A stretch of 64,000 nucleotides of DNA from positions 1 through 64,000 of IMG/VR virus record IMGVR_UViG_3300044640_002221. One strand, written 5' to 3'. Shown piece after piece: positions 2,121 through 60,741 of the stretch. The notes beneath the pieces are model-generated. The model was not told the origin of the DNA. It did not search any database and worked only from the letters and a program-made list of their open reading frames with translations. Made by a program: the position numbers and the translations under genes. The stretch comes from a virus. How positions within the stretch are numbered: the first letter of the stretch is position 1; each line of letters starts with the position of its first letter.

Positions 2121-2490
2121 TGTTTTAAATGTTGGTAAGTGTTTACTTTAAATTGGGAAGCTTTTAAACTCATCTCAGCCTGGCTTTTTCTAACAAATCT
2201 TGAACAGAGCCATCAACATCAATAGCTAGTTGCTCTACTTTACCTGAGTTAGCGGATTTGTACTCATACTCCTCGTCAATCTCCCAGTTAAGATTGCACT
2301 AATGAAGGCTATTATTTAAGTAATCTAAAGCTCCTTCAATAGCTTCTTTGAGAGAGCCTTTTGCTGTTGTCCAATAAACTGATAAGTCTCCATCACTTAG
2401 TTCTGCTTCTTCAGGCAAAACCTTGGCAATCTGTTGGAGATTACAGCAAGGCGACCTGCTAACAAAAAGGAAAGTGTAACTATTCATTAT

Positions 2491-2751
2491 TTACCCTATA
2501 AAACCTTGATTGCTGTACATCTTATGAAGTTCTTGATCACTTAACTCGGAAAGTTCTAACAGCCTTGCCAGTTCTTTTCTATAGCTCTCCAAGTCATATT
2601 GTCTATGCCAGAGAATCTCTTCTTCTTCTTCTGTCAGAGACACTATAGCCTCTAGTTCAGAAACCCACTCTTGTAGCTTTGATATCTTATCGCTCCAGAT
2701 AGCCCTTTCGTGTTCTATCTCTAGTTGCTTTCTTCTTTTAGCTTCACCCAT
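2491..2751 (-). CDS. Small protein with a cyanobacterial DUF2839-like MGEAKRRK N-terminus
   Basis: Starts MGEAKRRKQ; tightly packed with its neighbours. Confidence 0.4.
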   Translation of the reverse strand: MGEAKRRKQLEIEHERAIWSDKISKLQEWVSELEAIVSLTEEEEEILWHRQYDLESYRKELARLLELSELSDQELHKMYSNQGFIG

Positions 2752-16300: not shown

Positions 16301-19300
16301 CTTCTGGGGTACGCAAGCCTCACCATTTGACAAAGGAGAGCAAAGAAATAACACACTACCCGCAAGCAGACCAACTAGTTCGTCTAAGACTTTGCAGCAC
16401 GCGCAGTATCTTCAAAAGAGAAACCAACAGCAATCTAAAAATTCAATTCTGGTTGCTTCTGCTGATATTGGTCAAAGTGATATTGGGTATTACTCATTCC
16501 AGAAAGAGAAAGAAGAGTCTTTAAGTCTCTTAGACTACTTTAAAAGCGGGTTGTCCGCTTTAGGCGGAGGGATACTAAACGCGGGTAGAAAGGTTAAAAG
16601 AGTCTTTGAAAGATTAGGCAAGCAAGCACAGGATAATCTCTTCGGCAGTCAAGAGTATGTAGAACCTTCTATAGAAGGAACAGGTGGGATACCTATTGTT
16701 TCTACCTACTATACTCCTGGTGAAGGTGGTTCAATCAATGGACCGAAAGTTGATGCTAGAAGTCAATATATTGACGCAAACTCCAATGTTGCTGCTGTAA
16801 GAAATCTTGGAGTTAGAGGTGGTTTACCTTATGGCTCTGTGATTCAAGTTAGTAATCCTAAAACTGGTCGTTCAGAAATGTTGACTGTACAAGATACAGG
16901 CCCTTTTGTAAAAGGTCAACGAAGAGGTTTAGATATCACAAAGGCTGCTTACGACCGATTAGGTGGAACTGGGTTAACCACTTTTAATGTGAGAATTATT
17001 TCTGCGCCAGGTGCTAAACCAGGACAGGTGTTTAAAGTTGAAACTCCAGATAACTTCTCTTATGAGTTAGTTTATGGAGATCAGCAACGTAGAGAGGGAT
17101 TACTCGAACAAGTGGGCACGGGCTTAGAAAATAGTTATGAACGACTATTTGATAACAATATTATTGTCAGAGAGAAACTTAATGTTAGAAACTCAATAAA
17201 CCAACGTGTTCCTAATTCTTTTGCTGATACAGAAATACATCACCCTTCTAGAGGTAAAAGAGGTAGAGAGGGCAGAAGAAACTATGTAGATATGGGAGGA
17301 GTGCTTGAAGAAGTAAACTCCCGCAATCCAAGCTTGATAAAGAAAGATTTTTTGTTGAGTAAAAACGGCTCTTTAGATGTTAACGTTCCATCCCCTGCTG
17401 CTGGTTATGTAAGTTTAGACTCTAGTTGGGGTGGAGTTTATATCTACGAGGATGCAGCAAGAACTAAACTATTAGCGGTAGTTTTACACTTAGACAACTT
17501 TAAAATAAAAAGTGGTCAGTATGTTAAGTATGGTCAAGATTTAGGTCTGCAGGGTGGTAAAGGTGTTGGCAGAAGGTATGCCAAACACACCCACATGGAG
17601 TTAACTAAAGAAGGGTATGATTACTACTTTAAGGATGTTCAGGATGGTGTGTTTGATAGAAAACTAAATGGAGCATTAAATGTACAAGGGTCAATTCAGC
17701 CTGTAGTTAACACCACCTTAAAAAATAAGCCCTTTGCACAGATTGCTGATTGGGCTACAACTAATCATGGCCAGACACAAAACTCCTTAAATCTAGAGAG
17801 CATTGCAAGAAGAAATAATCTTGAGTCTATTGTTGTGCAAAAACTGGGCAGCAAGCAGCAACAAAGCTTTAATAAAGATAAGTACCTACCCCCTGCTTCT
17901 ACTCTTAAGTTAATAATATCTGACTTAGTTATTCAAGAAGTTAAGTCCGGTAGGCTTTCTGTAAATACTAAAGTTACTGTTTCAAAGTCAGACGTTGCTG
18001 AATACTCTTCTATAAAAGCTGGAAGTTCGCTCTCTGTAGCCTCTTTACTACAACAAACACTGAGATACTCTGAAAATACTTCTTCTAATACTTTAATAAG
18101 ATTACTGGGTGGGACGGAAGCAGCTACCAAGCTTGCTAGAGCTAAAGGATATACTTCTACAACAATAGGTAATCCTTTTAGTATAGTAGGGGCTAAAGGG
18201 TTTAAGAATACTTCTACTGCCTCAGATGTCACTAAAGCAATGAGTAGTATCTTATCTGATAAGTCTGAGGCTGGAGTAGTTGCTTCTAAAGCCTTATACT
18301 CTACAAGAAACTTTGGGTTTAAAGGAGAGATAGGAGGAAAAATAGGTAACACATCTAAAGTTATAGGTGATGTAGGTTTAGCCAATATTAAAGGAGAGAC
18401 TTATATAATAACAGCCTTCTCTTTGAGAAATGGTAATTTAGACTCTTCTAGAAGTGTTATAAAAAATTCAATAAATCAAGTTATTGAGGCTTACTATAAT
18501 CCAGCACCAAATAACCAAAGTCAAGTAACACCAAGAAGTAACAAGGGTCAACTAAAACTCCCTCAAGGCTACGAGTCTCTGAACCTTTTAGCTGAGACAT
18601 TAATCACTAACAAATACTTTGACCAATCAACAGCTAAAGGACGAGCTGCTTTAGCTACAGCTTTATTAATTGGTGGAGGAGAAGCTTTTGGTAAAGGAAC
18701 TACCAGAACAGATTTTTTTACTTACATGGGTGGCACAGGCGACATGATGAAAGGCTTTGCCCAGTTCAACACCACAATCAGGGAGTTCAGAGAAAAGACA
18801 AAATCTCCAGACTCTTATATGAACTTACTGGGAAGTATGTTGACAGGTGAGAGAACACTACCAAGAGGAATAGGTAGGTTCAACTCTGCTGAGTTAGCAA
18901 GTGCCGTTCAACAAGGTAAAGTTACAAGCGGTAAACAGCTTATACAGTTCATACAGAATAGAATTGATAAAGTTAGCTGGCAGGGTTTATATGATGGGAT
19001 GCGCCGTGTTCCTGGACTGGCTGACCAACTTGTAAATTACTTAAGGAACTCACAGTCTGTTAAGCCTACTAAACAAGGCTACGCTACTTCTATTACTCCA
19101 AAGACTGCTCTATCTGAATCTGATAGACAAACTTTAATATCTTCTAGTTTAGGTCTTTCTACAAGTCAACTACAGAAGATAACTAAAGAGTACAAGCAAG
19201 GAACTCAAACTTTAGACCTGGTAAAACAAAAGGTTGCTCAACAAACCCAGAATCTCAACATTCAAGTTGAGGCTGGAGGCGATACACCTAAACCAAGCGA

Positions 19301-53679: not shown

Positions 53680-55871
53680 AAAATAATAGCTGCCTTATTA
53701 GACAGCTTAGAGTAGTATCTCAATTTTTCTTCTTTAACTGTCTGACTGCAGCTTATTAATTGCTTCTTGAGCATCAACAAAACTCTGTAAAGCTTTTGTT
53801 AACTCTTCATCACTAATAAAGAACAAGTTCTTTCTGTCTGTATAAGATAAAGCGTTAATTAGTAGTTGACCTACTCTTAATTCTGGGCAGGCAGTTTTTG
53901 CTACTTGTATTGTTGTTAAAAGGTCTTTCATTTTTCACCTTCTGTTGTTTTGCAATAGCTATTATATTACTCTTCCTCTTTTCTTTTTTCTCTGATTGGG
54001 TTTAACAAACGTCCCCAAGTTGGATTTTTTAAGACCGTAGAGGGTACAAAGTTTAGAGTTTGTTCTAACTCTCTTAGTTTGAACTTACTAGCTAGAAGCC
54101 ATATAGACCTTAGCATAAAAGACCTAAAGTAGTTCTGATCTTCATCTAACTTGTGTCTATGTGCTCTCTCAACCTTTAATCTACTCTCCCAGTTGTTTAT
54201 TCTAGCGTTAGAAGTAATCTGTTCCTGCTTTAAAGTCTCAAGTTTATCTAGAATAATGTTTATGCTTTTATCTAGCTGTTCTACTTTTACCTTTTTATCT
54301 GGAGTATTTACTACTTTCCACTTTGTTAAGATACACATCTGCTGCCGCAGCATTCTTCGCTTATGAATAGCACTTCTCCTCCAGTCTAATCTTTCTGCGG
54401 ATGTGTCTTCTGTTGAACCTTTTAGTTCTCCTGACTTCCAAGCTAGTATTGCTGTTTCTATCTGAGCTGTTATATCTCCTATTACAAAGTAAAGGTCACT
54501 CAACATCTCTTCACACTCTTCTAGAGAAGAAGGCAGCTTTGTAGTTTCATAAACTATTGGTGGCATTCCCCATACTCTGGGAAATCCGTAGGTGTCATGT
54601 TGTTCTTCTACAACCTCTCGGCGGTAACTTTGTAAGTCTTCTTGCATTGCTTTACTCTCTTTAGCTTATTGTGTGAGTATAACCTGTTTATATGGCTAAT
54701 AAACAGTTTCTTTTTACCTGATATAGGGCGTGTCGGCTTCTGCACCTTTACTAAACTGTCTAGGTCAAGCCCTGCCAGCACTTGTAAATCTTCTATGCAC
54801 AAGTCTGAAAAGCTTAACTCATGTAGGTGCATACCTACCTTTGTAATTACTGTATTGCTTGTGAAACCGTTAACAGACTCTTCTACCAAGTCTAAGAACT
54901 TTAGTCTGATCGGTTTCTTTAGTCTGATCGGTTTCTTTAGTAAACATAGCTTTACAGGTTTTCCATTATTCTCTGGTTTATAAAGAGCTGGGCTACTCCA
55001 GGTCTTTTCCTGTCTATACTCACTATCTTTCAGATAAGGTTTCACTATCTGCTTGATAGTCTTAATTAAATGCTTTTTGAGAGTATCTAACTCTTGGTCT
55101 GTTAGTAATGTCATAAACTGCCTTTAGTAATCGCAACCACAATCTGAACTGCTATCGTAAGAGCTGCAATCTGAACTACTATAATCATTACAGTCAAAGG
55201 TACTGCTACTGTCATCAAAAGCAGTGTGGGTAAAACGGTAACTTTCATCAACCCAGTCTTCCACTTTTGCTGTATTTAAGTTGTACTCCTTTTTACTATG
55301 GTATCTACGACTTTCTGAAGTATTTACATTAGTCTGTTTCAAAGGCTTTATATGTAATCCAGCTTTTCTTCTATCTTCTGAGTTATAAGGCCACTGAAAG
55401 TCTGGTGAGTTGAAGAACTCTTCCTTTTCTTTAGTAGTTATCCCTGCTATTTCTTCTTGAGTGGGTGCAGCCTTTCTCTGACCTAAGTTATGCACGGCAG
55501 GGTCATAAGGCCAATCAATATGTTGTTTAACTAATTCATTAAGTTCTTCATTTGTCATAAAGCCTCCTGGTTAAATATTACAAAACTCCCCTAGCTTATT
55601 CTACTAGAGGAGCTTGCGATTTGCTCTATTAGAGTCTAGATAATCATCCAAATATTCTTGTAAGCAGACAGAGCCGCAGAAAGTTCCTTGTTCATTTTGA
55701 GAATGAGGTACTAGGACTTCACTTCTAATAGTTAAAGTAACCAGCAGACTGTGGTTTAAGTCCATCTTTAGACTCCCTCCACACCAGTCGCAGCAATCTT
55801 TCTTACCTATAGCTCCTGTCATTGTTTGCCTCCTAGATATGACAAAGGGAGGGTAATACCCTCCCCTCTTA

Positions 55872-56123
55872 TCAATGAAGCCAGATTGGTCCAATATTGT
55901 ACTCAGCTCGTCCGGTCAAGGGACTGCCAGCAGCTTTAAAGAACTCAGTCTCTACTTCCACCATTATTCTGTGAATCAGCTCTGCTGCTTCTTTAGCCTC
56001 CGCGTCCCAAGCAAACTTAGGTGTAGTTGGTCTACCATCTTTATCAATTACGTTACCGTGTTTATCAAAGAAGGTTTTAGTCTCATCTATCCAAGTCTTA
56101 CCCGGAGCGCGGGCGTTTAGTTC
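55872..56123 (-). CDS. polA: Family A DNA polymerase, last exon (exon 4 in window)
   Basis: Begins GAA CTA (E of VHD-E) and ends AKEAAELIHRIMVEV...GRAEYNIGPIWLH*, a typical PolA C-terminus. Confidence 0.9.
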   Translation of the reverse strand, partial: ELNARAPGKTWIDETKTFFDKHGNVIDKDGRPTTPKFAWDAEAKEAAELIHRIMVEVETEFFKAAGSPLTGRAEYNIGPIWLH

Positions 56124-56274
56124 CACTTGTGTTACGAGTAGCCCGGTTCCGACTACTCTCTCTAGCTTTCACTAGAGGTCAGATCATATCATCCTCAGTT
56201 ATGAGGGAGCCTGTTTCGAGTGTCCGACACCCTACGTCTTGTGACTGACCGTTGAACCTTGTACGTGCTATAAG

Positions 56275-56355
56275 TGGATGCTAAAAGAGTTGAACTTTTC
56301 TTGGGTTTCCCCACGACTTATGAGGTCGTTGCCTAAACCGCTCGGCCAAGCATCC
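56275..56355 (-). tRNA. tRNA with CAU anticodon (elongator Met or Ile2), type II long variable arm, inside intron 4
   Basis: Acceptor GGATGCT/AGCATCC + A; D arm GCC/GGC; anticodon arm ACGAC-CTCATAA-GTCGT; V arm GGG-GAAA-CCC; T arm AAAAG-TTCAACT-CTTTT; 81 nt, CCA not encoded. Confidence 0.9.
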
Positions 56356-56427
56356 ATCTTTATAGTTTAGCACCTTGGCTGCTGATTGTCCATATCCTTG
56401 TTCTTTTTAAACCTGATGACAGCTAGT

Positions 56428-56703
56428 TTAACAAAGGTCTAAGTTACCTTCTGAACTATAATCTACGTCTGTCAGATGGTCTTGACAACATAAGTAAACT
56501 TTTGCGTCTGCTTTTACCAATCCATCTGCTAACAACTTCTGCACCTTATCTAAAAGCTGCTGAACTGTTATTGCTTCTGGGGGTTTAGGAGCATAGTTTT
56601 GAGGTACTAGTAATGCCCCTATGGTCTTTAAACCTGGATGAGGTGCAGCACCACTTTTGGTTATTGTTTTAGGAAGTATGTAAGGTTCTGTCATGTCTTC
56701 CAC
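56428..56703 (-). CDS. Hypothetical 91-aa protein in the P5 region of intron 4
   Basis: ORF flanked by complementary UGAUAGUUA/UAGCUGUCA and CCUUG/CAAGG segments; no endonuclease motif seen. Confidence 0.55.
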   Translation of the reverse strand: MEDMTEPYILPKTITKSGAAPHPGLKTIGALLVPQNYAPKPPEAITVQQLLDKVQKLLADGLVKADAKVYLCCQDHLTDVDYSSEGNLDLC

Positions 56704-56815
56704 TATTTATTAACTATCATTATAATCACGCTTGCCGTTTCCAGCTACGTTGTGGTGAACAAGGCTCTGAGGAATTTCCAGCAATTTAAGCTCTTTACCC
56801 ACGACCAACTAATCA

Positions 56816-56905
56816 ATCGTGCACCGCGTTTAATATTATAATTCCTGTTCCTTTAGCCTCCTTTCGTACGCGTATCATGGCTTCTTTCATCATCTGGGCG
56901 CATTC
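56816..56905 (-). CDS. polA: polA exon 3 (90 nt)
   Basis: Translates ECAQMMKEAMIRVRKEAKGTGIIILNAVHD, the segment between IQG and motif C. Confidence 0.92.
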
Positions 56906-57000
56906 CGATTATGTTATCACTGAGCTTTTTATCTCAGTTTCTAAAGATTTCTCCTTAGTCCAGGGCACGTCTTGAACAGTAAGTGGGTAGTAGGTTTGGT

Positions 57001-57411
57001 CTAGAAGGGAGAGGCGTAACCTTTCCAGTCTTCTATGGTATTTAAGGTTTGAGTCTCAGTGGTCAGTCCAGCTATTAAAGTAGAGACACCTCCTTGTAAG
57101 TTTGGTAGTTTTATTCCTTTAGAAGGATTAGCTCTTTCAAACTCTGCATAAGCTTTATCAGAGTAAAACTGCCCCGTGCTTTGCTGGAGTTGGTCTCTCA
57201 GCTTAGTGTTCTCTTCCATAGCAACAATCAACTTTTCAGTCAATTGTTGGTTCTGTGTTTGCAGGTCAGCTACTAAAGCTTGATAGCTACTGGTGAGAAC
57301 TATCTTGGTGTCAAGTATCTTCTCTAAGTCAGAAGACTCGACGAACTGTTCGTTGTGGTTGTTCATTTGTTTAGATAACGTAAGGTTGAACAATTGCGCG
57401 GTACTCTTCAA
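57001..57411 (-). CDS. Hypothetical coiled-coil protein (intron 3 cargo)
   Basis: 136-aa ORF inside L8 of intron 3. Confidence 0.55.
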   Translation of the reverse strand: MKSTAQLFNLTLSKQMNNHNEQFVESSDLEKILDTKIVLTSSYQALVADLQTQNQQLTEKLIVAMEENTKLRDQLQQSTGQFYSDKAYAEFERANPSKGIKLPNLQGGVSTLIAGLTTETQTLNTIEDWKGYASPF

Positions 57412-57979
57412 GTCTGGCTTCTAAGGTTTGGCACTTAGTTTCAAGTTGATTAATCTGCTCTACATACTTAGGAACTAAGTCTTCAAGCTCTGCCAATCTA
57501 GCTCTCAAGTGTATGAGTTCTGACTTTGAGCTTTCCTTCTTCTCTGTAGCCTTTTCAGACTGTTCATTAAAGTAGTCTTCTGCAGTACCTTCCCATAAAG
57601 GGTTAGCCTCAAGCTTATCAACTGCCCAGCGAAGAATCTTATCACTGATAATTACTTTGAAGCAGCTCTCTTCTTTTAGAAGACCAATCTTTTCCACAAC
57701 GTCCCAATGCTCATAGAGGAAGATACAGCGGTAAGCTTTTCTTCTTTCTACTCTCTCTTCTAAATAATGATTAAAAGAGTTGAAAGTTCCTCTGTCAGTT
57801 TCTACAGGGTTAGACTTAGTAGCTGATGCCAGCATATCTCTAATCTTTGTGAGAGACTCTCCAGCATCTCGGTAATGTTGAAGGCTCTTTCTCCTTAACT
57901 GTTGAGACTCTTTAAAGTTCTCGTCAGCTTCACCAAACTTAGTCATGTAATTTGTTTCTAATAGAGATAGGATAAGCAT
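57371..57979 (-). CDS. Hypothetical protein, DUF3102-like N-terminus and coiled-coil tail (intron 3 cargo)
   Basis: HYRDAGESLTKIRDM...TFNSFNHYLEE pattern. Confidence 0.45.
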   Translation of the reverse strand: MLILSLLETNYMTKFGEADENFKESQQLRRKSLQHYRDAGESLTKIRDMLASATKSNPVETDRGTFNSFNHYLEERVERRKAYRCIFLYEHWDVVEKIGLLKEESCFKVIISDKILRWAVDKLEANPLWEGTAEDYFNEQSEKATEKKESSKSELIHLRARLAELEDLVPKYVEQINQLETKCQTLEARLEEYRAIVQPYVI

Positions 57980-58320
57980 AGAACTTTTATTCTGCTAAAG
58001 GACATGACCTGTGGTTTAAACCACAGGTTCTCATTACTAATATAGCAGCTTATTCTAGAAGAAACATCTTGAGTCTTATTAAACCTTCCAACTACCTTAA
58101 TACGACCTTTGCTGCCTACTTACTGTCCGGGGGCGCTCTTGGGTCTCTTACCGTCTGTTCCTGCAATGCAAGACTGAAGACTTAGACCTGCCCGTCGCAC
58201 CTTCCTACCATTTCTGATAGGCTTGGCTCAAAGTTATCCTCAACATCACTTGGTAGGACTTTCTTATGAGTTCACCCCCTGCACTCTAAAAGTCACCTAA
58301 TAGAGGGGCAATTGTTATTT

Positions 58321-59204
58321 CAGTGTTATTACCGTCAAGGCTCTTTATCCCTGACTTCTACTGGTCACCCAGCAGCTTGGACTATTTCATTATCTAGACT
58401 TAGTAGTAGAACTCTCTTTCTATTTAAGAAGAAACCAGGTTCTTGGTACATAAGCTTGGTCAGCCGTTCAACGCGTTCCTTACTGCCGACTCTTATCACT
58501 TGCACACTCCTATTGTTGTAGATGCTAACCTTAAAGTCATTCTCTCTAAGAAAACTAACTAATTGGTCAACAAACTCTTTACTAGCAGAGCATAAAGTTA
58601 TAGCTTTGTAATCCCCTTTTGCCCCATCCTTTTTGATGTGACCATTCCCATCCATGACACCTCTAAAGAAGCTAAAACTTAAAGGAAAGTTAACCTTTAA
58701 AGATTTACTCTTTCTAGGGGTTATTCCAAGGCTAGTTAAATAAGAAGCAACTTCTTTATTAGTGAAGCTTACCTCGTAATAAGTAGTTTGGTATCTCTTG
58801 TCGAAGATAGGGTAGGGTTTCATCAATTCCCCTAAAAAGCTGCAGAAAGCTAAGGCTAAGTCTTCATCTTTTGTAACTAGACTAACCTTTCCTCTATCAT
58901 GCACGCAGCCATCTGTTGCCATTATTCCCAGCCAGTATTGAACTTCTGGGGCAAGCATTTCTGTAAATGGATTAGTTGTTACTTTCTTAGGGAGTCTTGG
59001 CATCTTTTTCTCTACTACATTCTCAGTCTAGATATCGGGCGCTCGTGGGCAGATTATTATTGGGATTCACTGCCTAGTCTCTGAACCTTCTAGGAAACCT
59101 ATGCCCTTCCTAGCTTGGCTTAGCGTTATCTTACCTTGTAAGACTTTCACTAAATTCACCCGATTTTCATTTATTGATTACTCAATAAAGGGGCTCTCTA
59201 CGGG
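58321..59204 (-). mobile_element. Group I intron 2 of polA (884 nt), with a LAGLIDADG ORF in L8, inserted after IQG
   Basis: P1 GGGU/GCCC; P2 UUAUUGA-GUAA-UCAAUAA; P3 UCGGGUG/CGCCCGA; R GUUCAGAGACUA (59086-59075); P8 UAUCUAGACU/AGUCUAGAUA; S AUGAAAUAGUCC (58390-58379). The 3' end at G58321 is inferred. Confidence 0.88.
58365..59003 (-). CDS. LAGLIDADG homing endonuclease (intron 2)
   Basis: YWLGIMATDGCV and FFRGVMDGNGHI motifs; the 3' end overlaps P8, S and P9. Confidence 0.9.
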   Translation of the reverse strand: MPRLPKKVTTNPFTEMLAPEVQYWLGIMATDGCVHDRGKVSLVTKDEDLALAFCSFLGELMKPYPIFDKRYQTTYYEVSFTNKEVASYLTSLGITPRKSKSLKVNFPLSFSFFRGVMDGNGHIKKDGAKGDYKAITLCSASKEFVDQLVSFLRENDFKVSIYNNRSVQVIRVGSKERVERLTKLMYQEPGFFLNRKRVLLLSLDNEIVQAAG

Positions 59205-59274
59205 ACCCTGGATCGCGTGGTTCACTGCAGCGCGAACCGAGCTTTCTCCTACGCCCTTAGCATTCTCTTCATCT
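59205..59274 (-). CDS. polA: polA exon 2 (70 nt)
   Basis: A + GAT...GGT gives (V)DEENAKGVGESSVRAAVNHAIQG, containing the conserved RxAxNxxIQG motif. Confidence 0.92.
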
Positions 59275-59639
59275 CTATTGTGTTATCGCCAGGGCTCTTT
59301 ATCCTTGGCTTCTGTAGGTTATTTTTCCACTACAGTACAGACTATATCATCAACTTAAAAGCAAGCAATTAGTTAAACGTACGGTGTTTTAGTCACGTAG
59401 ACTATTTTGAGTTATTCTTTCTCTTTTCTTTTTTATTACTCCTACTGCTTAAACACTACTTCTCTGACGCTGCTGTCCTCTCTTTGTAAGAAAAGTTTAG
59501 ACCCTGCTATTCTTTCCTTTAAGAAGTAAGCTCCTGTAACTATAGCTTTTGTACTTACTTCTTCTGTGGTCATATCTTGGCTTCTAAAATGTTTGTAATG
59601 GAAACACTCTGTTTGCTAAGTAGCTTGTCCTCTAGTTGG

Positions 59640-60512
59640 TCAATCTTTGGTATGTTCACTTTGTTGTGCTTGCCAGACAGTAATACCAACTTCATCTTCT
59701 ATAGCTACTAACTCAGCCGTTATGTTAAAGCTCGAAAAATCAAAAACGCTGACTAAATCTACAGATTTAATATGTACCGCTTTTAAAGACAAAGCAGAAA
59801 CTACACGATAGAATAACTCTTCTTGATTACTTACAGAGTTCTTGATTAAGTAAGTTAACTTGTAAAGTTGAGGAGTGGGAGCGGTGTTTTTAACGCTACA
59901 AACTACATTACCCTCTTCATCTTCTACTCTTGTTAAAGACCAAATAGAGTCTTCGGTACTGAACTCTCCCGCAATATCAAAGCCTTTTTGTTTAGCTAAG
60001 TTTTCAGACTCAGTGCTGAATATCTTATAAAACTCACTGACAGAAGCTTTGTTGTTTACAGAGAATACCAGTTTGTAATCTTGAGAATGCTCTTCTTCTA
60101 AGCACTCACCAACTTCACAGTCCCAAACTATCAGGTTGTCTGAGTCATAAATACGTTTTAAAGTTACTAACCTCTCAGAACCTTGAAGTGCATCTATTGT
60201 AATCTCTGCTGCTACTAAAGCTTCTTGCAGGTCTTTAACTATAACTTCTCTTTCTAAGTTAAAGCTTCTTGGTACAATTTGCTTATTAACGTAAAACTCT
60301 AGCCTGAAAGTTTTCAGGTAAGAATATCTACAATGAAGTCTATAAAGAACTGCGCCAGCTCTAGTTTGACCATCTTTAAGAGTCTCTCTAGCTGCATCTA
60401 AGTAACCCTGAAGTACCTCTCTTTCAATGCCTGGATAGCTTTGGATTAGAAACTCTAGGGTCGGGAGTTCTTTTAAAGTATCGGCAATCAAACAATTGTA
60501 TAGTTGTTGCAT
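59640..60512 (-). CDS. Hypothetical protein (intron 1 cargo)
   Basis: 290-aa ORF inside L8. Confidence 0.6.
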   Translation of the reverse strand: MQQLYNCLIADTLKELPTLEFLIQSYPGIEREVLQGYLDAARETLKDGQTRAGAVLYRLHCRYSYLKTFRLEFYVNKQIVPRSFNLEREVIVKDLQEALVAAEITIDALQGSERLVTLKRIYDSDNLIVWDCEVGECLEEEHSQDYKLVFSVNNKASVSEFYKIFSTESENLAKQKGFDIAGEFSTEDSIWSLTRVEDEEGNVVCSVKNTAPTPQLYKLTYLIKNSVSNQEELFYRVVSALSLKAVHIKSVDLVSVFDFSSFNITAELVAIEDEVGITVWQAQQSEHTKD

Positions 60513-60741
60513 GGTTATTTCTTTTAGTCTTGGTAATAATCTGATTGAAATTGTTCTTCTACGAGGTTATCAAGCTGTTCTGTAGCTATATGAGCAAAGC
60601 ATACATGGAGGCTGCTCATATAGTCGGAAGCTTCATTACCTATTACTAAAGCATTCTCTAAGTTACTAGCCAACACATCTCTATAGATTAAAAAGTCTGG
60701 CAAAACCTCTGTACTGACGGTTTAACGTCAGTTTGTATCTA

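Follow-up and report, generated by a model that had tools for sequence, protein, structure and literature searches.

We report that the family A DNA polymerase (PolA) gene on the minus strand of a stretch of phage DNA, the first 64 kb of the 136,923-bp IMG/VR virus record IMGVR_UViG_3300044640_002221 (64,000 nucleotides (nt), here called the window), contains two complete group I modules that follow each other without a single exon base between them, that is, a tandem (side-by-side) twintron. We think it likely that these are two independent, complete group I introns, introns 2 and 3 of the gene, lodged in one PolA bond after the GGU of a conserved ..IQG, with presumably active ribozymes. The gene carries at least five group I introns. 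The window DNA occurs in lake and freshwater metagenome runs, and the closest cultured kin by PolA are Ma-LMM01-group Microcystis phages and Pseudanabaena phages, at only 23-28% identity.

Joining six exons gives one open PolA frame of 746 amino acids (aa) with motifs A, B and C in place. Exon 2 ends ..AUC CAG GGU at U59205 and exon 3 begins GAA UGC at G56905; the interval between them measures 2299 nt, and the protein reads ..IQG and then ECAQ... Eleven homologues that are uninterrupted at IQG/E (L007-L013, L076-L078 and L035) align across ..AIQG/E.. without a gap, hence no residue is missing and no micro-exon is needed. By identity, the closest PolA relatives are P0001 (97%) and P0002 (90%). 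A first-pass annotation of the window had proposed two complete cores side by side after IQG, with no residue between G and ECAQ, at 56906-59204. The coordinates are correct, and the arrangement is borne out by these eleven alignments together with the model matches described below.

The two modules were searched for with the general group I covariance model of Rfam (RF00028, curated cut-off 50 bits) and with R1, a model of the P3-P7 core made from six short introns of other phage genomes, all lacking an open reading frame (ORF) and none taken from this interval. RF00028 matches 59214-58358 with 63.7 bits over model positions 1-253, which places intron 2 in the family. R1 finds exactly two matches between exon 2 and exon 3, each of full length, so that intron 3 is recognised as group I by a clade-specific model built without it. 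In both introns the P3-P9 elements, including the P3/P7 pseudoknot, can be placed by standard pairs, and an alignment of the clade shows covariation in P4, P5, P6a, P7 and P9. Both also have a 5' exon U paired with a guide G and a terminal G (G58321 and G56906). When the intron 3' ends are aligned, the terminal Gs share one column after a conserved hairpin, and by our own count on the printed 3' ends the tail behind the hairpin with the AUAAAGAG-type loop is 14 nt in each of introns 0-3; the resemblance among the tails, pointed out in the first-pass annotation, is real. In our own reading, the CU before the terminal G of intron 2 can pair with an AG in J7/9 as P9.0.

The borders are fixed by an IMG/VR relative, L006, whose PolA is 73% identical to that of the window in the first PolA exon and has introns at the same PolA positions. 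At the IQG/E bond of L006 the exon (..AUC CAA GGU) runs directly into the start of intron 3 (AAAU..), the same start as A58320; that intron ends ..UUG, GAA UGU follows, and R1 has one match in the interval. The extra DNA in the window relative to L006 is exactly 59204-58321. Given that the flanking bases differ (intron 2 starts with C and intron 3 with A; intron 2 ends with G and the exon with U), the borders of intron 2 cannot slide. Because the L006 exon GGU meets intron 3 directly, the boundary G58321/A58320 is fixed independently and the exon between the introns has zero length. The first-pass annotation had put intron 2 exactly on the border of the exon and intron 3 while treating its 3' end as the least certain boundary, and it had suggested a search for relatives with only one of the two introns; L006 is such a relative, with intron 3 alone beginning at the same nucleotide, and it settles the end at G58321, the same position that the aligned 3' ends of the family predict.

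Comparison of the two intron 3 copies, which are about 90% identical in the 5' core and 73% overall, reveals compensatory changes on both sides of seven pairs: P6a has four of them, and P5, P9.0 and P9.1 have one each. In a further pair one side has changed with pairing kept, and P2-P9 contain zero broken pairs. Such a pattern marks an RNA structure under selection. Intron 3 is probably the older resident of the IQG/E bond, given that its orthologue stands alone there in L006 and that its helices have been kept by compensatory change. Of its two ORFs, the first has relatives among other metagenome proteins (P0090 is 92% identical), and neither bears endonuclease signatures. Within L006, about 26 nt covering J7/9 and the whole P9 hairpin are identical between the intron 1-site intron and intron 3 (about 16780-16810 and 18270-18300), and the P9 of the window's intron 3 is quite unlike that of L006, which suggests an exchange of sequence between two introns of one gene.

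Intron 2 encodes a putative homing endonuclease. Its frame is open, PF14528 matches in two stretches and both LAGLIDADG motifs are found, with D31 and G119 among the invariant columns listed for the two motif regions; the cleavage activity is putative. The gene starts in the P8 loop and spans P8 3', J8/7 and P7 3', ending with a UGA stop in the P9 tetraloop.

Several observations sit less easily with two complete introns. RF00028 leaves intron 3 unmatched at E up to 10, even when only its 1.4 kb are searched, and gives the L006 orthologue 25.5 bits; the 1.1-kb P8 insert, the P7.1/P7.2 extension and the changed P7 sequence may lie behind this failure. The P1 of intron 2 is one base out of register in the minimum-energy fold, and no P10 is recognisable for this intron, on re-examination as in the first-pass annotation. 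Comparison of four DNA runs with 55500-64000 gave no piece bridging the intron 2/3 junction in other samples among the contig pieces listed. Lake and freshwater runs dated 2016 to 2025 do contain contigs 100% identical to parts of both introns, and no contig joint in the four runs skips intron 2, intron 3 or both.

The cores of introns 2 and 3 are about 50% identical, and in a maximum-likelihood tree on 97 core columns the two intron 3 copies form a clade (100/100) without intron 2. This pair and the intron 0 pair are the only well-supported groups of the tree, in which the nearest kin of intron 2 appears without support. Both the core identity and the intron 3 clade rule out that intron 2 arose by tandem duplication of intron 3; with intron 3 alone in L006 and cores so different, the two members of the tandem have separate origins. 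A copy of intron 1 was likewise rejected, at 56-61% core identity and with unrelated endonucleases in introns 1 and 2. The core nearest to that of intron 2 is that of the ORF-less intron which phage L157 has at the intron 1 site (70-72% identity). A protein on other metagenome contigs, P0086, is 80% identical to the intron 2 endonuclease with a conserved C-terminus, the part encoded by the 3' core of the ribozyme; an intron like intron 2 therefore exists elsewhere. At this bond, scans of viral contigs with the exon peptide, the intron 2 endonuclease, an intron 3 motif and an intron 2 motif found no orthologue of intron 2 and returned only L006 and L156. The metagenome scan yielded only relatives of at most 53% identity, all of them intron-free at this bond. 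The records of four relatives contain no intron 2 DNA beyond a 63-nt tail similarity, and no genome with intron 2 alone at the bond was found.

Separately from the origin of intron 2, L157 holds a 260-nt ORF-less group I intron with a six-pair P1 at 2452-2690 (minus strand, record G005). As an orthologue at the present bond the L157 intron was rejected, since it lies 7 nt upstream, after the AU of the Ile codon of ..AIQ... The intron 1 site is 70 nt upstream of the bond. Across these phages, introns have thus landed repeatedly in the short conserved ..N-x-A-I-Q-G.. stretch of PolA, at three different points within 77 nt of coding sequence.

With one intron 3-bearing relative for comparison, a gain of intron 2 here and its precise loss in the L006 lineage would leave the same pattern, which counts against calling intron 2 a newcomer. 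We regard an ancestral tandem, from which the L006 lineage lost intron 2 precisely, as the less likely history. It draws on there being only two intron 3-bearing genomes at hand and on P0086, by which intron 2 is not unique to this genome. However, precise loss of one of two abutting introns would need a cDNA of the splicing intermediate or a donor allele without intron 2, no other PolA relative fetched has any intron at this bond, and the L006 record has no intron 2-like sequence elsewhere. If intron 2 was instead gained, endonuclease-driven insertion and reverse splicing are both possible routes; homing into the exon/intron 3 boundary, as proposed in the first-pass annotation, is one candidate history. 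A more specific idea is that intron 2 targets another intron's border, either through an endonuclease that has the exon 2/intron 3 junction as its recognition site, in which case it would spread only among alleles with intron 3, or by reverse splicing into a transcript that contains intron 3, with the GGGU/GCCC pairing as the only guide; we hold the two versions together to be doubtful. Arrival by reverse splicing, if true, would have left in a phage genome a trace, rare in nature, of group I transposition at the RNA level.

The order of splicing can be approached through the pairing of guides and exon ends. Introns 1, 2 and 3 of PolA all stand after GGGU and all have the guide GCCC; at the 5' splice site, the guides of introns 2 and 3 both have the last four bases of exon 2 as their partner, so that the two introns compete for one exon end. 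The shared sequences make the ends of exons 1 and 2 interchangeable for the three guides, which in principle allows the 70-nt exon 2 to be skipped and may also explain how such an intron came to land at the second GGGU. When folded, the tail of intron 2 with the start of intron 3 has no structure (0.0 kcal/mol), exon 2 with the start of intron 3 gives a canonical 6-bp P1 (GGGUAA/UUGCCC, U-G at the splice site, -6.3 kcal/mol), and exon 2 with the start of intron 2 gives a weaker hairpin (-4.6 kcal/mol). Because the guide of intron 3 is unpaired at the intron 2/3 junction and gains its 6-bp P1 once intron 2 is gone, an upstream-first ('ratchet') order is likeliest. The guide and core of intron 2 would be transcribed first and intron 2 would splice first, joining exon 2 to A58320 and so recreating an L006-type single-intron precursor. 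Intron 3, with its P1 and P10 then able to form, would in turn ligate exons 2 and 3. Both this order and the activity of the two ribozymes are predictions from pairing and conservation.

The first-pass annotation had anticipated much of this. Its 6-bp P1 with a U-G pair, available to intron 3 only after removal of intron 2, agrees with the folds (0.0 versus -6.3 kcal/mol). It gave the guide UUGCCC correctly but one base off in position (58312-58307 instead of 58311-58306), and the P10 that it proposed for intron 3 exists but is imperfect, with four of six pairs here against six of six in L006. Its statement that intron 2 must normally splice first keeps its basis in pairing, while the order itself is a deduction from that pairing and has a rival.

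In that rival, composite ('zombie') excision, the guide of intron 3 would pair with exon 2 across the 884-nt intron 2, and the intron 3 core would remove all 2299 nt, leaving the ribozyme of intron 2 dispensable. Both guides are GCCC facing the same GGGU, the guide of intron 3 fits exon 2 at least as well as that of intron 2 does, and long-range pairing is possible; the P1 of intron 3 is the more canonical and, once adjacent, the more stable (-6.3 versus -4.6 kcal/mol), and intron 2 has no P10. One tandem intron in a fungal cox3 gene is predicted to be excised whole (PMC8393795). These points tell against the upstream-first order. Among the runs listed as containing the stretch, none was of RNA. 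However, the guide of intron 2 lies 10 nt from its splice site and is transcribed about 900 nt ahead of that of intron 3, and the core of intron 2 is intact and scores well above the Rfam cut-off, as would suit a ribozyme that is active or one that arrived very recently. We consider composite excision unlikely, somewhat more so than an ancestral tandem, and prefer the upstream-first order.

Other architectures could appeal to the single Rfam group I match in the interval, be it one long intron whose second core has decayed, a nested twintron, or a pair of introns between which a micro-exon is retained, but they are highly improbable: the intron 3 core is found by the independent model R1, kept by compensatory change and alone in L006, intron 2 lies outside the first base of intron 3 (ending one base before it) and inside no intron 3 helix, and a micro-exon would have no place in the protein alignment.

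Table 1 Coordinates of the tandem introns, their parts and the host gene, in the numbering of the record
Feature	Position	Strand	Basis or remark
PolA, six exons	67560-66232, 65946-65878, 64154-63724, 59274-59205, 56905-56816, 56123-55872	-	Spliced translation
PolA exon 2 (70 nt, ..DEENAKGVGESSVRAAVNHAIQG)	59205..59274	-	Spliced translation; ungapped alignment to uninterrupted homologues
PolA exon 3 (90 nt, ECAQMMKEAMIRVRKEAKGTGIIILNAVHD)	56816..56905	-	Spliced translation; homologue alignment
GGGU exon ends	63727-63724, 59208-59205		
GCCC guides	about 63714-63711, 59194-59191, 58309-58306		
Intron 2, complete group I, 884 nt, starts after U59205, ends G58321	58321..59204	-	RF00028 full model 63.7 bits; helices P1-P9.1; L006 comparison
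Intron 2 guide GCCC	59191..59194	-	P1 with exon GGGU (59208-59205), U59205-G59194 at splice site
Intron 2 catalytic core, 5' part (P3 5' strand, P4-P6, J6/7, P7 5' strand)	59072..59169	-	R1 60 bits, E 1.3e-14
Intron 2 homing-endonuclease gene, 212 aa, double-motif LAGLIDADG (putative activity)	58365..59003	-	ORF list; PF14528 2.5e-12; helix coordinates
Intron 2 3' core: P8 3' 58399-58392, J8/7, P7 3' UAGUC 58384-58380, P9 58372-58361, AUAAAGAG-loop hairpin 58354-58335, 14-nt tail, G58321	58321..58399	-	
Intron 3, complete group I, 1415 nt, A58320 to G56906	56906..58320	-	Orthologue of lone L006 intron 16904-18328
Intron 3 guide region: UUGCCC 58311-58306; ACAAUU 58315-58310 (P10 partner of exon 3 start)	58306..58315	-	
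Intron 3 catalytic core, 5' part (P3, P4-P6, J6/7, P7 5' strand GGGCA)	58186..58285	-	R1 35.1 bits, E 9e-8
Two non-endonuclease ORFs (202, 136 aa) in intron 3 P8 loop	57001..57979	-	Both retained in L006
Intron 3 3' core: P8 3' 56984-56976, J8/7, P7 3' UGCCC 56967-56963, P9 56958-56941, hairpin 56937-56920, 14-nt tail, G56906	56906..56994	-	

Intron 1 as delimited by the first-pass annotation (59275-63723) measures 4.4 kb and encloses a LAGLIDADG gene and about nine more ORFs on the same strand; the L006 intron at this site measures 1.8 kb. Intron 4 holds a tRNA-Met (CAT) gene with a long variable arm (56274-56355, minus strand). A stretch of intron 4 (56392-56761) that contains a 91-aa ORF is swapped for 29 other letters in contigs of two lake runs, and in one run the 29-letter form has greater depth than the window form; an ORF-less intron 4 variant seems to circulate in the same waters. 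After ..SQQI, PolA is broken by an insert of about 285 nt (66231-65947, just past the window end; 11231-10947 in L005; also in L158-L160). It has no R1 match and is not a group I core; the break point is the same in all relatives. Intein domains (PF14890, PF07591 and PF05203) are present at the SQQI site in many relatives, including a 97% identical protein of 617 aa, and distant relatives of the intron 2 endonuclease (33-37%) lie beside PolA sequence near this point in three other phages. The site resembles that of a split intein or 'fractured gene', which may have decayed in this genome.

Closely spaced group I introns occur in genes of phages such as Staphylococcus phage Twort and the SPO1-like Bacillus phages (cited in PMC3984707). 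There, a single essential gene can carry several self-splicing introns, and homing-endonuclease genes often accompany them. The PolA gene described here is likewise an essential phage replication gene densely packed with self-splicing elements, its reading frame kept. In Twort and the SPO1-like phages, however, real exons lie between the introns, unlike here. Zero-exon tandem group I introns have been described in fungal mitochondria (PMC6279837, PMC4964425, PMC8393795). Text searches of the literature found no phage or bacterial case, and neither 'twintron' nor 'tandem' occurs in the text of a 2014 review of bacterial group I introns. The pair thus brings a kind of element known from fungal mitochondria into a new host class, and with the single-intron form in L006 and the tandem form here both at hand, its borders are fixed to the base.

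The closest parallel is mS917a/b in the rns gene of Endoconidiophora resinifera WIN(M)1410B (PMC6279837), where two group I introns also have no apparent exon between them, a single intron occupies the site in other strains or relatives, and one of the two is interpreted as the resident, the other as having arrived ectopically. That case differs in being a fungal mitochondrial rRNA gene with two group ID introns that carry related LAGLIDADG genes and of which the 3' member is the newcomer, whereas in the phage the gene is protein-coding, it is the 5' member that is extra, and the two ORFs of the resident intron lack endonuclease signatures. Hypomyces aurantius cox3-i2 (PMC4964425) is similar in having two intact tandem introns (group IA-type there), each with relatives that occur singly. 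Its authors propose that the downstream intron leaves first, with the tail of the upstream intron as a pseudo-exon; because the tail of phage intron 2 (..CACUG) is unable to pair with the guide of intron 3, this downstream-first order is not available here. For Ophiostoma ips, an upstream-first ratchet has been predicted for the cob I4 trintron and one-piece excision for cox3 I2 (PMC8393795), the same two alternatives as in the phage, although these are in silico predictions for fungal mitochondrial introns and the cob case also includes a group II module. Hence, the phage PolA pair offers a testable system for a question that is open in the fungal cases, namely whether such tandems are removed by a ratchet or as one unit.

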